From the IMG/VR virus record IMGVR_UViG_2939121850_000001: a stretch of 64,000 bases of DNA; one strand, 5' to 3'. The notes below the pieces were generated by a model. That model was not told the origin of the DNA and did no database searches. It was given only the letters and a program-made list of their open reading frames with translations. The translations under genes were made by a program, and so were the position numbers. Origin of the DNA: a virus. Taxonomy: Duplodnaviria > Heunggongvirae > Uroviricota > Caudoviricetes. Shown here in pieces: positions 8,669 through 61,283 of the stretch (positions within the stretch are counted from its first letter, which is position 1; each line of letters starts with the position of its first letter).

Positions 8669-9178
8669 ATGGGGCACAATAACACTAAGGGAAACCGTAA
8701 ATTTATTAAGGGCCGCTATACTGCCAACGCGGCCAAAGGCGAACGACTGGTATCTTCTGAATTCCAGCTCACTTTTGCAGGCCATGAAGATATCAGCGTA
8801 CTGGTTCGCACGTCGCAAATTCCTGAAATGACCCGCGAGGATGTGGAGGACTATGGTCCGAATGGTGTGAAGTTCAACCAGCACGGTCCAATTCGAAACT
8901 CTGGGGAAATCCAGGTCCAGTGCGTGGAGACTATCGAAGGCGATATTCTTCAGTTCATTAAAGATCGCATTGCGGCGAAGGACTATGTTGATATCACGAT
9001 GGCTGCGACCCCTGAATCCAAATCTTCCGGGGTTAACGCTGTGACAAAAGCTGCTACAACAATTGAAATGTTGGACTGCAAAATCTACAGTGATGCAATC
9101 GACTTTAGTACCGAAGATGTGACTGCCGCTGTGCGCCCGTCACTTCGTATCGTCTACAACTGGATTGAGTGGGATTAA
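8669..9178 (+). CDS. Putative tail tube or tail structural protein
   Basis: 169-aa ORF, last gene of operon before a strong terminator. Confidence 0.45.
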   Translation: MGHNNTKGNRKFIKGRYTANAAKGERLVSSEFQLTFAGHEDISVLVRTSQIPEMTREDVEDYGPNGVKFNQHGPIRNSGEIQVQCVETIEGDILQFIKDRIAAKDYVDITMAATPESKSSGVNAVTKAATTIEMLDCKIYSDAIDFSTEDVTAAVRPSLRIVYNWIEWD

Positions 9179-9197
9179 GAGTCATCCCTTGTATTTT

Positions 9198-9223
9198 AAA
9201 GCTCCTTCGGGAGCTTTTTTATT
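9198..9223 (+). terminator. Rho-independent terminator of the tail tube operon
   Basis: AAAGCTCC-ttcg-GGAGCTTT stem followed by TTTTTATTT. Confidence 0.7.
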
Positions 9224-9293
9224 TGGAGAGGAAAGGGTGCATTGAGGATACCTGACACACGAAGAGTGGCGGGATCTCTCCCCGCCAGGTCTC

Positions 9294-9449
9294 TTACCTT
9301 TCAGATTCGTAGGCTGTGAAGACAGTGACCTCCGTCTGGCCGGTTCGGATTCGTACCTCGCAGAGGTCTTTCCTCGTTACCAGTGCCGTCACAATGACGG
9401 TTAAACAGATGACGATCAGAGCGATTAATATCGCTTTTTGCTGCTTCAT
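9294..9449 (-). CDS. hok: Hok/Gef-family type I toxin (51 aa)
   Basis: Hand translation of minus strand: MKQQKAILIALIVICLTVIVTALVTRKDLCEVRIRTGQTEVTVFTAYESER, near-identical in pattern to E. coli Gef/HokC; SD AAGGAG upstream. Below ORF-track size cutoff. Confidence 0.8.
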   Translation of the reverse strand: MKQQKAILIALIVICLTVIVTALVTRKDLCEVRIRTGQTEVTVFTAYESER

Positions 9450-9507
9450 AGCCTGCTTCTCCTTGACCTTTTGGTCGGTAAGAGGCTAATCTACGTATGC
9501 TAAGCAT
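9301..9507 (-). CDS. mok-like overlapping reading frame
   Basis: 68-aa ORF in another frame starting 58 nt upstream of hok and overlapping it, as in hok/mok/sok loci. Confidence 0.45.
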   Translation of the reverse strand: MLSIRRLASYRPKGQGEAGYEAAKSDINRSDRHLFNRHCDGTGNEERPLRGTNPNRPDGGHCLHSLRI

Positions 9508-9560
9508 AGATATTGCCTCAGATTAATGTTAAGCGTCTTGCAGGACGCGTAATGTTATCT
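9470..9560 (+). ncRNA. Inferred Sok-like antisense RNA region (boundaries not determined)
   Basis: Expected opposite the mok start/hok leader; TTGACC -35-like at 9463. Inference only. Confidence 0.25.
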
Positions 9561-9630
9561 GGGGCTTTCTTCTATCTGCTTTTCGGGTAATGCCTGAAGC
9601 AGATAGCCTCAAGCACCCGCAGCGATTGTA

Positions 9631-9876
9631 TCAATGTCTGGCTTTTTTTCTATAGAAATCACCTGGAAGGGTGAATATCCACATCAGAAGAAATGTTGCA
9701 GCAAACATGATCCCTAATGGCCAGACCGCGCCAAAGAAAATCCATACTAAGATCTCCTCTGCTTGTTCTTTGCGGTCGATATCGACAAGCATTTTTCGGC
9801 TGATCATGTATACACAGAAGCCAATACAAACATATCCTGCAAAAGCGATCGCTAACTGTAAAAAATCAGATTGCAT
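9631..9876 (-). CDS. Small two-TM membrane protein downstream of repL
   Basis: 81-aa ORF from internal ATG with SD GAGG; hydrophobic segments LAIAFAGYVCIGFCVYMI and ILVWIFFGAVWPLGIMFAATFLLMWIF. Confidence 0.4.
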   Translation of the reverse strand: MQSDFLQLAIAFAGYVCIGFCVYMISRKMLVDIDRKEQAEEILVWIFFGAVWPLGIMFAATFLLMWIFTLPGDFYRKKARH

Positions 9877-9926
9877 CTCCGACCTCAAACTGAAAACGCC
9901 AGGTAACTCCAGATTAGAGCAATCTA

Positions 9927-10772
9927 TCACCCTCTGAATCCTGCCGGTATACCCCATTGTTCGTTATCTTTATTTTTGGCTAAAACCGCATTAAGAGCTT
10001 CGTTTACCGTCATGCAATGCGGCAGATTATCGAAGTTTGATACCCCGCCAATATCAGGAGAACGCTTGTTCTTCAGGTAAGCATATTTCCGCGCTGCCGC
10101 CTCTACCTTCTGCTTGAACTCATGTTTTTGAGCGCGTTTTTTGGATAACCGCAGATTGTCAGCCTTTGCTTTTGCCTCAGCGATCCATGAAGTCAATTTT
10201 TTGAGTCTGCTCGTTCCGGCACCGCCGGAAACTGATCTTTTTGTTTTTTTAACTTGTGACTTCTTATTCTTTATTGCCACGTCATCCTGACAGGGGGAGG
10301 GGGTATCATTTTGACATGGGGGTGTGGATAAAAAATTAAATAAAGCCAATGTCTTAGCGAGAACAGCTTTAACCTTGGTTGCCGCTGAAGAGATCTTTAA
10401 TTTGCTTTCAATCAGCGCATTTTTGGCTTGTTGTGCGAAGGCCAAAAAGGATGGTGTAAACCGGTACAGGTTAGCGCGACGTTCACGGTGATCGCCGATA
10501 ACAATCTCTACAGACAGAATTCCTTTGTTTACAGCTTCACGGAATGCACGAACGACGGTTGATTGGCTATAACCAGTTTCTGCCGCGATCAGGCGGTGAG
10601 GCTTGTGAATGAAGTATTCACTGGTTGTTGCCGCGAGATTTGCACATTGCGACAGGATATGCCCGGCGCTACGGGATAGACCGGAGTGTGTTACAAAGCA
10701 GGCCAATTCATAGCCAGAAAAAGTAAAATCGCTCATCGTTATACAGCTCAGGAAAGTGACTTTAGCCAGCAT
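9927..10772 (-). CDS. repL: Lytic replication initiator RepL
   Basis: 281-aa ORF downstream of kilA; size and sequence match my recollection of P1 RepL. Confidence 0.8.
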   Translation of the reverse strand: MLAKVTFLSCITMSDFTFSGYELACFVTHSGLSRSAGHILSQCANLAATTSEYFIHKPHRLIAAETGYSQSTVVRAFREAVNKGILSVEIVIGDHRERRANLYRFTPSFLAFAQQAKNALIESKLKISSAATKVKAVLAKTLALFNFLSTPPCQNDTPSPCQDDVAIKNKKSQVKKTKRSVSGGAGTSRLKKLTSWIAEAKAKADNLRLSKKRAQKHEFKQKVEAAARKYAYLKNKRSPDIGGVSNFDNLPHCMTVNEALNAVLAKNKDNEQWGIPAGFRG

Positions 10773-13028: not shown

Positions 13029-13077
13029 AGTTACGGCCTCATTCGTAGGTTTAACAACCTGCGCCCCGCTGCTAAAC

Positions 13078-13155
13078 GGGTGGCAGGACGTGACGGGGTT
13101 AGCAGACTGGCACGAATGAAACCAGCAGGCCGAAGCCTCCCCATCACGCCCCACC
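13078..13155 (-). ncRNA. c4: c4 antisense repressor RNA of immI (~78 nt)
   Basis: Minus-strand 5' GGUGGGGCGUGAUGGGGAGGCUUCGGCC...CCACCC 3' with terminal complementarity and UUCG tetraloop hairpin; between Op51 and icd. Confidence 0.55.
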
Positions 13156-13342
13156 ATAATTCGGGCGTAACGTGGTTTTACGGACACAAAAATACCGCAA
13201 TATCGGATATCTGCGGTTGTCCGCATTCGTATTCAGGCTGCTAAACCCGGTCGCAGAATTTGCTACGACGGCGGAACTATAAGCCTGAACGATTAAAAGG
13301 TCAATATGATGCGAAAAGATAGCATTCGCGACTTAAAAATAC

Positions 13343-59330: not shown

Positions 59331-60659
59331 CTGAGAGATCCCCTCATAATTTCCCCAAAACGTAACCATGTGTGAATAGATTTTGAGTAAGCAGGGTTGC
59401 AGCCACGAGTGAGTCTTCCCTTGTTATTGTGTAGCCAGAATGCCGCAAAACTTCCATGCCTAAGCGAACTGTTGAGAGTACGTTTCGATTTCTGACTGTG
59501 TTAGCCTGGAAGTGCTTGTCCCAACCTTGTTTCTGAGCATGAACGCCCGCAAGCCAACATGTTAGTTGAAGCATCAGGGCGATTAGCAGCATGATATCAA
59601 AACGCTCTGAGCTGCTCGTTCGGCTATGGCGTAGGCCTAGTCCGTAGGCAGGACTTTTCAAGTCTCGGAAGGTTTCTTCAATCTGCATTCGCTTCGAATA
59701 GATATTAACAAGTTGTTTGGGTGTTCGAATTTCAACAGGTAAGTTAGTTGCTAGAATCCATGGCTCCTTTGCCGACGCTGAGTAGATTTTAGGTGACGGG
59801 TGGTGACAATGAGTCCGTGTCGAGCGCTGATTTTTTCGGCCTTTAGAGCGAGATTTATACAATAGAATTTGGCATGAGATTGGATTGCTTTTAGTCAGCC
59901 TCTTATAGCCTAAAGTCTTTGAGTGACTAGATGACATATCATGTAAGTTGCTGATAGGTTTCCAGTTTTCCGCTCCTAGGTCTGCATATTGTACTTTTCC
60001 TCTTACTCGACTTAACCAGTACCAACCCAGCTTCTCAACGGATTTATACCATGGCACTTTAAAGCCAGCATCACTGACAATGAGCGGTGTGGTGTTACTC
60101 GGTAGAATGCTCGCAAGGTCGGCTAGAAATTGGTCATGAGCTTTCTTTGAACATTGCTCTGAAAGCGGGAACGCTTTCTCATAAAGAGTAACAGAACGAC
60201 CGTGTAGTGCGACTGAAGCTCGCAATACCATAAGCCGTTTTTGCTCACGGATATCAGACCAGTCAACAAGTACAATGGGCATCGTATTGCCCGAACAGAT
60301 AAAGCTAGCATGCCAACGGTATACAGCGAGTCGCTCTTTGTGGAGGTGACGATTACCTAACAATCGGTCGATTCGTTTGATGTTATGTTTTGTTCTCGCT
60401 TTGGTTGGCAGGTTACGGCCAAGTTCGGTAAGAGTGAGAGTTTTACAGTCAAGTAAGGCGTGGCAAGCCAACGTTAAGCTGTTGAGTCGTTTTAAGTGTA
60501 ATTCGGGGCAGAATTGGTAAAGAGAGTCGTGTAAAATATCGAGTTCGCACATTTTGTTGTCTGATTATTGATTTTTGGCGAAACCATTTGATCATATGAC
60601 AAGATGTGTATCTACCTTAACTTAATGATTTTGATAAAAATCATTAGGGGATTCATCAG
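59331..60659. mobile_element. IS10 (1329 bp) with 9-bp target site duplication CGCCTGGTA
   Basis: Ends CTGAGAGATCCCCTCATAATTTCCCC and CTGATGAATCCCCTAATGATTTT (reverse complement); direct repeats at 59322-59330 and 60660-60668. Confidence 0.95.
59344..60552 (-). CDS. IS10 transposase
   Basis: 402-aa ORF MCELDILHDSLYQFCPELHLKRLNSLTLACHALLDCKTLTLTELGRNLPTKARTKHNIKRIDRLLGNRHL... recognised as IS10 transposase. Confidence 0.95.
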   Translation of the reverse strand: MCELDILHDSLYQFCPELHLKRLNSLTLACHALLDCKTLTLTELGRNLPTKARTKHNIKRIDRLLGNRHLHKERLAVYRWHASFICSGNTMPIVLVDWSDIREQKRLMVLRASVALHGRSVTLYEKAFPLSEQCSKKAHDQFLADLASILPSNTTPLIVSDAGFKVPWYKSVEKLGWYWLSRVRGKVQYADLGAENWKPISNLHDMSSSHSKTLGYKRLTKSNPISCQILLYKSRSKGRKNQRSTRTHCHHPSPKIYSASAKEPWILATNLPVEIRTPKQLVNIYSKRMQIEETFRDLKSPAYGLGLRHSRTSSSERFDIMLLIALMLQLTCWLAGVHAQKQGWDKHFQANTVRNRNVLSTVRLGMEVLRHSGYTITREDSLVAATLLTQNLFTHGYVLGKL

Positions 60660-60747
60660 CGCCTGGTATATCCCTGGTACTGATACAGGCAGTGTGCTGT
60701 TCAATTGCCTCGATCATCTCTTCACGGGTGACTAATGACGTTCTCAT
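60660..60747 (-). pseudogene. ant-like gene 5' fragment (first ~29 codons)
   Basis: ATG at 60747 with SD; encodes MRTSLVTREEMIEAIEQHTACISTRDIPG, paralogous to Ant N-terminus. Confidence 0.7.
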
Positions 60748-60965
60748 AGTCCCTCCTGAGCAGAAGCGTTAACAGGGAGGCACCAGTAACTGAGAGAATT
60801 GCGTGAATCAGTGGAAAAACGGGCAGAGAAAATACATGGGGCGTCAGGAAGCTGAGAGCGGGCCTCATCTTCTGTTGGTGCAATAACGAAGTGATAGTGA
60901 CGTTTTTGGCAGGAGTAAAAGCGCCAGATAAATTCAGGATGAGTTGGGGTAGGGATAGTAGCCAT
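60744..60965 (-). CDS. Second Icd-like protein (73 aa)
   Basis: MATIPTPTHPEFIWRFYSCQKRHYHFVIAPTEDEARSQLPD...; SD AAGGAGG; stop overlaps ant-like start. Confidence 0.6.
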   Translation of the reverse strand: MATIPTPTHPEFIWRFYSCQKRHYHFVIAPTEDEARSQLPDAPCIFSARFSTDSRNSLSYWCLPVNASAQEGL

Positions 60966-61025
60966 ATTGGCAGCCTCCTTAGACGTTGGTATGTAACCAC
61001 CGCAGAAGAGACCAATCTTGCTGGC

Positions 61026-61101
61026 GGTGGACTGTACGGAGTTGGCCTTACTGGCGTCCAAGGTAACCAGCCTACCCGAAGGTAGCCCCATACAGCCCAC
61101 C
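61026..61101 (-). ncRNA. Second c4-like antisense RNA (~76 nt), sequence-divergent from copy 1
   Basis: 5' GGUGGGCUGUAUGGGGCUACCUUCGGGUAGGCUGG...UACAGUCCACC 3'; same architecture as 13078-13155. Confidence 0.45.
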
Positions 61102-61283
61102 ATTGTAGAGGTGTGCGTGTACGCCGATACAAAAAAAGACGCGAGCGGCGTCTGTATCGCCTTAGACTTAAGCGGGAGGCCAATCCCGGCACCCGTTTTA
61201 ATGAGGTGCCTGATAAGCATAAACCGAAAATGCCACAAGGCGCAAGAGGTCAGGTTCAATGTAACATCGGTAGCTAAAAAACA

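Follow-up and report, generated by a model that had tools for sequence, protein, structure and literature searches.

A probable hok/mok/sok type I toxin-antitoxin locus of the HokW/HokD subgroup between bplB and repL of a P1-like phage-plasmid

The stretch of DNA analysed here (64,000 nt, hereafter the window) is a P1-like phage-plasmid. Homology to P1 (NC_005856) stops at position 9220 and resumes at 9913, so that 1826 bp of P1, with the genes pmgF, rlfB and rlfA, are replaced here by a 692-bp cassette. On its minus strand the cassette encodes a 51-aa Hok-type toxin, an overlapping mok frame and an 81-aa membrane protein, and on its plus strand it carries the putative gene of a Sok antisense RNA (Table 1). 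The 81-aa ORF, the other gene of the cassette, is found only in P1-like phages and overlaps the hok promoter with its stop codon. The cassette is flanked by the late tail operon on one side and, on the other, by the lytic replicon kilA-repL, which C1 controls; its right junction falls inside the C1 operator Orlf. Homology, element positions, predicted folds, covariation and genomic context come from our own analysis of this DNA.

Table 1. Features of the cassette and its left flank (positions in the window; minus-strand features read from the higher to the lower number)
Feature	Position	Strand	Basis
Cassette of 692 bp replacing pmgF-rlfB-rlfA	9221-9912		blastn junctions against NC_005856
ORF for 81-aa membrane protein, other cassette gene	9631-9876	-	phrog_3772, E 3e-54, full length (81/81); annotated by PGAP
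hok/mok mRNA promoter	9625-9652	-	-35 TAGAAA 9652-9647; 16-nt spacer; TG-extended -10 TACAAT 9630-9625; promoter scan
Full-length mok-hok mRNA (predicted; minimal extent from +1 to the end of fbi, 384 nt)	9235-9618	-	Rfam model start; hokW homology stops just past fbi; end-pairing in MFE fold
tac (translational activator) box GGGUGCUUGAGG, mRNA 5′ end	9607-9618	-	Pairing with fbi in MFE fold; covariation
Conserved 5′ hairpin, mRNA nt 13-47	9572-9606	-	MFE fold; helix 2
ucb / anti-SD box AAAGCCCC	9561-9568	-	MFE folds; hides mok SD in closed form, pairs with tac in open form
mok reading frame, 68 aa	9301-9507	-	SD GAGG 9519-9516; ATG 9507-9505; phrog_37205
dcb box GCCUCUUAC	9478-9486	-	Open form: pairs with mok SD (Sok-target hairpin); full-length fold: pairs with GUAAGAG past the hok stop
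hok toxin gene, 51 aa	9294-9449	-	SD GGAG 9462-9459; Pfam, PHROG, HokW/HokD identity
GC-rich 3′ stem-loop, 8-bp stem	9267-9287	-	MFE folds; helix 16
fbi (fold-back inhibitory) box CCUCAAUGCACCC	9235-9247	-	Complementary to tac, one bulged U
Sok promoter	9463-9492	+	-35 TTGACC 9463-9468; 18-nt spacer; -10 TAATCT 9487-9492; read from sequence
Sok antisense RNA (predicted)	9499-9573	+	16-nt single-stranded 5′ tail 9499-9514, hairpin 9515-9565, U-rich tail; ends from the 933W sokW annotation
P1 bplB terminator hairpin	9198-9217		P1 backbone, outside the cassette; sole hairpin downstream of fbi

By profile comparison the product of the 51-aa ORF is a Hok/Gef toxin. Pfam PF01848 (HOK_GEF) matches it over profile positions 2-42 of 42 at 76.3 bits (cut-off 22; E 1.3e-21), and PHROG 251, "MokW-like host killing", does so with an E of 1.9e-31. 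The NCBIfam Hok models match it below their cut-offs (50 bits against 73), for which reason this match was left out of the membership evidence. The mok frame, matched by phrog_37205 (E 1.9e-20), is read in a different frame from hok, its start lying 58 nt upstream of the hok ATG and its end 7 nt short of the hok stop codon; a start codon occupies the aligned mok position in 29 of 29 relatives. Both the sequence and the ORF listing of the window locus are free of insertion sequences and frameshifts.

Upstream of the hok AUG, a leader of 175 nt (9444-9618, minus strand) is matched by Rfam RF01794 at 114.3 bits (gathering score 59; E 6.5e-27), over the full length of the model (positions 1-157). 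This family is named "sok", but it matches the strand of the hok mRNA and ends at the hok AUG, and it therefore certifies the mRNA leader. Weaker Rfam matches to ceN48, CRISPR-DR46, sbrA and, on the plus strand, "sok" itself (21 bits) fell below threshold and were treated as noise. The hok promoter, with its extended -10, lies 7 nt upstream of position 1 of the leader model and thus predicts an mRNA start at ~9618, which is that same position 1. A sequence-only reading had proposed a Hok/Gef-type toxin on this 51-aa ORF and a mok-like role for the overlapping 68-aa ORF; the two ORFs are where it put them, the toxin sequence that it quoted is exact, and the profile and leader matches bear out the family assignment. 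Its range of 9240-9570 is too short, the true extent being 9235-9652. Because the locus runs from 9652 to 9235, that range omits the promoter and the first ~50 nt of the hok mRNA, with tac and the 5′ hairpin, and clips fbi.

At the other end of the transcript, the GC-rich stem-loop that follows the hok stop codon is expected, from the role described for its counterpart in the R1 locus (PMC9841398), to form the 3′ end that protects the mRNA once it is processed and translatable. Beyond it, the relatives carry a GC hairpin with a U-tract ~10 nt past fbi. The cassette has no intrinsic terminator of its own shortly past fbi, and from 9220 on the sequence is P1 backbone. The bplB terminator hairpin scores as good on the plus strand only; read backwards it is followed by just UUU, without a U-tract. 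As this is the sole hairpin downstream, the full-length RNA has no certain 3′ end and may extend as far as ~9196. A terminator of its own is usually not listed among the defining features of the hok/mok/sok family, yet its loss here is a real difference.

How would such a transcript fold? In the unconstrained MFE fold of 9618-9196, tac (9618-9607) pairs with fbi (9247-9235) and the GAGG of mok is sequestered (z = -8.3). An IncF/R1-type control, whose sequence matches real IncF plasmids at 100%, folds into the same architecture including the end-pairing (z = -9.0). In the model established for R1 (PMC9841398), the full-length RNA has tac paired with fbi and ucb hiding the mok SD, and once the 3′ end has been trimmed tac can pair with ucb and the SD with dcb, so that the mok start and the Sok target become accessible. 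The complementary boxes for such a switch exist in the window. In thermodynamic prediction, the penalty for making tac pair with ucb is +13.3 kcal/mol in the full-length RNA and +2.6 in the RNA trimmed to the 3′ stem-loop, compared with +12.2 and +0.2 kcal/mol in the R1-type control. Once this pairing is forced, the predicted fold also shows the SD/dcb hairpin, which contains the mok start. Left unconstrained, the truncated RNA stays closed, the open form being 2.6 kcal/mol higher, and it displays a metastable 5′ hairpin; mRNA nt 1-34 may thus alternatively form, in nascent or truncated RNA, a metastable tac hairpin.

Covariation among relatives supports the full-length fold. We fetched 46 loci encoding relatives of the toxin, one genome per species. 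Both mRNA ends were present in 28 of them, from Escherichia, Shigella, Kluyvera, Citrobacter, Pantoea and Photorhabdus, and these were aligned with the window by MAFFT to give 29 sequences. When the fold of the window was mapped onto this alignment, 86.7% of the cells were paired and 34 pairs showed changes on both sides, against 39-43% and 10-16 pairs in controls whose partners had been slid by one to three columns. The tac/fbi helix (helix 1) is paired in 88.8% of cells, with pair 4/403 being U:A in 16 and C:G in 11 of the 29 sequences; several pairs of this helix are under-counted, since MAFFT shifts fbi by one column in the Photorhabdus loci, which are without the bulged U. The 5′ hairpin (helix 2; 92% of cells paired) has three pairs changed on both sides and the ucb/SD helix (helix 4) has six. 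The dcb helix (helix 7; 92% paired) is nearly invariant, and the 3′ stem-loop (helix 16) is paired in 87% of cells across the 29 relatives.

Opposite the mok start, the predicted Sok RNA (~71-75 nt) folds at -28.2 kcal/mol (z = -4.8), and the annotated SokW RNA of phage 933W, with which it is collinear, folds alike. Its coordinates were obtained by transferring the 933W sokW annotation through a pairwise alignment, which sets the start at 9499 on the plus strand. The promoter was likewise placed via homology to the annotated sokW gene, together with the conserved IncF-type layout; its -10 matches the consensus at three of six positions and, as a result, a consensus promoter scanner made no call. 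The layout of this promoter on the opposite strand is kept in 29 of 29 relatives. The 5′ tail of the predicted RNA is complementary to the mok start codon region (9507-9505). At the level of sequence, a putative cis-encoded Sok gene with promoter, tail, hairpin and U tail is thus present opposite the mok start. The TTGACC box that the sequence-only reading had singled out as a possible antisense promoter element would serve as the -35 in this arrangement, with the RNA gene predicted at ~9499-9573 and its tail covering the mok start. The GC hairpin that the same reading saw past the hok stop is the 3′ stem-loop, and the 3′ fold-back that it had raised is recovered as the tac/fbi pairing of the predicted fold.

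Taken together, we consider it very likely that the locus is an intact hok/mok/sok type I toxin-antitoxin system of the HokW/HokD subgroup, working as the following switch. For its transcripts, processing, toxicity and biological role we infer the course of events from the experiments on R1 and hokW-sokW. The constitutive promoter at 9652-9625 would produce a stable mok-hok mRNA of ~385 nt or more. In the full-length molecule tac would be paired with fbi and the mok Shine-Dalgarno hidden by ucb, and in consequence, as we propose, this RNA would be neither translated nor bound by Sok. Slow trimming from the 3′ end to the GC stem-loop at 9287-9267 would strip fbi, allowing the RNA to refold through tac/ucb and mok SD/dcb pairing into a form in which the mok start is exposed. 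Translation of mok across the hok start would then lead to Hok synthesis. As long as the element is present, the short and unstable Sok RNA would pair with the processed mRNA around the mok start, resulting in its block and degradation. When the plasmid-prophage is lost or transcription stops, Sok would decay first, Hok would be made and inserted into the inner membrane, and the cell would die.

The closest studied relative is hokW-mokW-sokW of the Stx2 phages 933W/Sp5 of E. coli O157:H7 (87% DNA identity over 9235-9628, 90% for the protein), which experiments have established as a type I system in which HokW is toxic and sokW RNA neutralises it (PMC8621323). The two loci match in leader layout, tac, fbi and 3′ stem-loop, and both are carried by temperate phages, although the host of hokW-sokW is an integrated lambdoid prophage and that of the window locus a plasmid prophage. 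The promoter regions are unrelated (20 of 38 positions identical) and the downstream terminators differ. Within the Sok RNAs, the hairpin is identical to that of SokW at 52 of 55 nt, whereas the single-stranded 5′ tail, the recognition end, is identical at only 10 of 16. Cross-neutralisation with SokW thus seems unlikely, which suggests that the two RNAs have separate specificities. A further difference concerns mok: mokW shares the frame of hokW and has its start 57 nt upstream, so that an N-extended Hok results, whereas the mok of the window starts 58 nt upstream and out of frame. The 933W arrangement prevails in 22 of the 29 aligned sequences (21 of the 28 fetched loci); the one found here recurs in two near-copies and two other loci.

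That out-of-frame arrangement, 58 nt upstream, is the one of the R1/IncF hok/mok/sok (parB) locus, which also shares with the window the tac/fbi end-pairing, ucb, dcb, a Sok promoter within the leader and the 3′ stem-loop. The R1 mechanism is experimentally established (PMC9841398) and the expected use, on a low-copy plasmid, is the same. The two Hok proteins have only 42% identity, however, and outside the conserved boxes the leaders have diverged, the 5′ hairpin being 18 nt shorter and the Sok hairpin longer in the window. In protein sequence, the toxin is closer to HokD (RelF) of the E. coli K-12 Qin prophage (94% identity). The hokD gene directly follows relB-relE and is without leader, mok and sok, whereas the copy described here has all three and is not beside relBE. 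Three hokD-type loci in our set likewise gave no Rfam leader match and are located after relB-relE. The label "hokD", which PGAP/NCBI gives to the toxin in near-identical records, fits the protein and not the system; in one such record (MH422554) the toxin is labelled MokW.

The locus is common among relatives of the window. In PLSDB, 507 plasmids hold most of repL, and the bplB-hok-ORF81-repL arrangement occurs in 261 of these ~507, compared with 99 plasmids that have the P1 version (rlfA-rlfB-pmgF). That P1-like plasmids conserve it so well may be due to a recent shared ancestry and not to selection. The site between bplB and repL, occupied by rlfA-rlfB-pmgF in P1, has been counted among the eight variable regions of P1-like plasmids (PMC9603915). 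We found no paper in the literature that describes or tests a complete hok/sok system in P1-like elements.

P1 carries another addiction system, the type II module phd/doc. Its expected outcome is the same, in that cells losing the plasmid prophage are killed or arrested, but the two systems are unrelated in sequence and mechanism: a protein antitoxin with a Fic-family kinase toxin in one, an antisense RNA with a membrane peptide in the other. A tblastn search of the 64-kb window with Phd and Doc gave no match. The Phd query equals the Phd annotated in NZ_CP119005.1 and the Doc query differs from the annotated one at one residue. This record is identical to the window over a 901-bp query (9100-10000) and carries phd/doc too, and its segment 60,000-82,368 matches the window only over the last 192 bp. 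It is thus plausible that hok/sok acts as an addiction module additional to phd/doc.

What does the locus bring to its host element? Addiction, an aid to lysis and exclusion of other phages have to be considered, and these roles are mutually compatible. For a low-copy plasmid prophage, post-segregational killing would be the most economical reading, and we regard it, in addition to that by phd/doc, as the most likely benefit in this P1-like phage-plasmid.

A working hok/sok could instead serve mainly the lytic cycle: upon induction Sok would be lost, and Hok would damage the inner membrane and help lysis and phage release. This is compatible with the reading that we prefer and, as the main role, somewhat unlikely. 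P1 has its own holin and endolysin system, and the hok promoter looks constitutive and is separated from upstream transcription by a terminator-like hairpin (9674-9659). The plasmid prophage, moreover, unlike an integrated lambdoid prophage, gains directly from post-segregational killing. Nevertheless, the position of the cassette between the late tail operon and kilA-repL, with its right junction in the C1 operator Orlf, fits a lytic role, and so does the behaviour of the nearest studied relative, hokW-sokW of Sp5 (87% DNA, 90% protein): after mitomycin C, its sokW RNA disappears and HokW is produced, dependent on RecA, and the locus doubles phage release (PMC8621323).

One may go further and speculate that the cassette, as the commonest bplB-repL allele, has a value beyond addiction, by aiding lysis or aborting infection by other phages, with the diverged Sok tail insulating it from the hok loci of resident prophages, and with a tie to lytic control through the linked membrane ORF and that half of the C1 operator which has been retained. 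We hold this combined view to be unlikely and put it forward tentatively.

A main role in abortive infection appears quite unlikely. According to this explanation, a virulent phage would stop host transcription, Sok would decay, and Hok would kill the cell before the invader matures. In support, hok/sok of R1 on a high-copy plasmid cut the plating efficiency of T4 by 42% and its plaque size by ~85% (reported in PMC8621323), and a variable region such as bplB-repL (PMC9603915) is the type of site where accessory cargo sits. But the R1 effect was weak and needed a high copy number, whereas the P1-like plasmid is low-copy, and the locus is without flanking defence genes. A PADLOC scan of Hok, Mok and the 81-aa ORF returned no matching model, so that a defence role is unsupported by that library.

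The locus could also be a remnant without activity, as several chromosomal hok loci of E. coli K-12 are. Its nearest named relative, hokD/relF (94%), has no leader, mok or sok, the terminator typical of the family has been lost here, and an IS186B insertion at GGATCTCTCC is mentioned in the text of a paper on one P1-like plasmid (PMC6906374); within the window, GGATCTCTCC occurs only in the hok 3′ stem-loop. We judge decay highly improbable for the window copy, as both promoters, tac, ucb, mok, dcb, hok, the 3′ stem-loop and fbi are all intact, with no IS or frameshift, and the predicted fold energetics match those of the functional R1-type locus. Finally, that the small ORFs are meaningless chance open frames, for which only their size speaks, is ruled out for practical purposes by the Pfam and Rfam matches (E 1.3e-21 and 6.5e-27), along with the PHROG match (E 1.9e-31) and hundreds of conserved copies.

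The hok/sok family has been textbook knowledge since the 1980s. The locus described here is a known, ordinary member of it, and hundreds of P1-like records already bear the annotation hokD or MokW. Three consequences are practical. At bplB-repL, reference P1 is unrepresentative, as about half of the sequenced P1-like plasmids carry hok/sok. P1-like elements are vehicles of resistance genes and probably contain both hok/sok and phd/doc as addiction modules independent of each other, a point of relevance to plasmid-curing strategies. The RefSeq name hokD, for its part, hides a complete RNA-regulated system, including the unannotated gene of the predicted Sok RNA.

The antisense RNA predicted for the hok locus, Sok (9499-9569 on the plus strand), differs unevenly from SokW, the antisense RNA of the hokW-mokW-sokW locus of the Stx2 phage 933W: the hairpin is identical at 52 of 55 positions, whereas the recognition tail matches at only 10 of 16. 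Judged from sequence, a diverged tail on a conserved hairpin is the pattern expected if related, co-resident hok/sok loci diverge against cross-neutralisation. The match to the Rfam family RF01794, named 'sok antitoxin', lies at 9444-9618 on the minus strand, that is, on the sense strand of the hok mRNA, and ends at the hok AUG. Therefore, this match marks the hok leader and not the Sok RNA strand.

Comparison of the loci L005-L043 revealed that the mok frame varies between close relatives. Of the 29 aligned sequences, 22 have the mok ATG 57 nt upstream of hok and in frame with it, which yields an N-extended Hok. The window (9450-9507), L005, L006, L024 and L026 show a distance of 58 nt, with mok out of frame. 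The same single-base difference turns the Sok -35 box from TTGCCT into TTGACC.

In plasmid pSvP1, an IS186B copy reportedly lies inserted in the region that separates bplB from the lytic replicon, with a 10-bp target duplication, GGATCTCTCC (PMC6906374). This sequence occurs once in the window, at 9272-9281 on the plus strand, inside the hok 3′ stem-loop, and the IS186B of pSvP1 probably lies within the 3′-UTR of hok.

The second gene of the cassette, a membrane ORF of 81 aa (see table), was found by tblastn in P1-like phages as sole carriers, with a 44% identical homologue in SJ46. The ORF ends in a stop codon that overlaps with the hok promoter, and a search for a sigma-70 promoter upstream of the ORF found none. 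The cassette's right junction, at 9913, lies within Orlf (former Op55), an operator of the P1 C1 repressor, at 9907-9923. The remnant, ATTGCTCTAAT, keeps 11 of the 17 operator bases and therefore C1 may still bind at this site, which is immediately downstream of repL and lies upstream of the 81-aa ORF.

Features of the cassette and RNAs annotated elsewhere in the window
Feature	Position	Strand	Remark
81-aa two-helix membrane ORF, second cassette gene	9631-9876	-	phrog_3772, E 3e-54
Terminator-like hairpin	9674-9659		within 3′ end of 81-aa ORF
C4 antisense RNA, with its targets a1/b1	13076-13161 and 13230-13282	-	as expected for P1 immI region
IS10 RNA-OUT	60545-60614	+	
Second C4 antisense RNA	61020-61107	-	
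isrK	61132-61209	-	

Across the 64,000 nt of the window, phd/doc is absent and no tRNA genes were detected. RNA-OUT, the second C4 RNA and isrK cluster at 60545-61209, which suggests that the window carries near its end a copy of IS10 as well as a second immunity region, non-P1 and of the antirepressor type. When the window was compared with the examined segment (60,000-82,368) of NZ_CP119005.1, a plasmid identical to it over 9100-10000, the match was confined to the last 192 bp.
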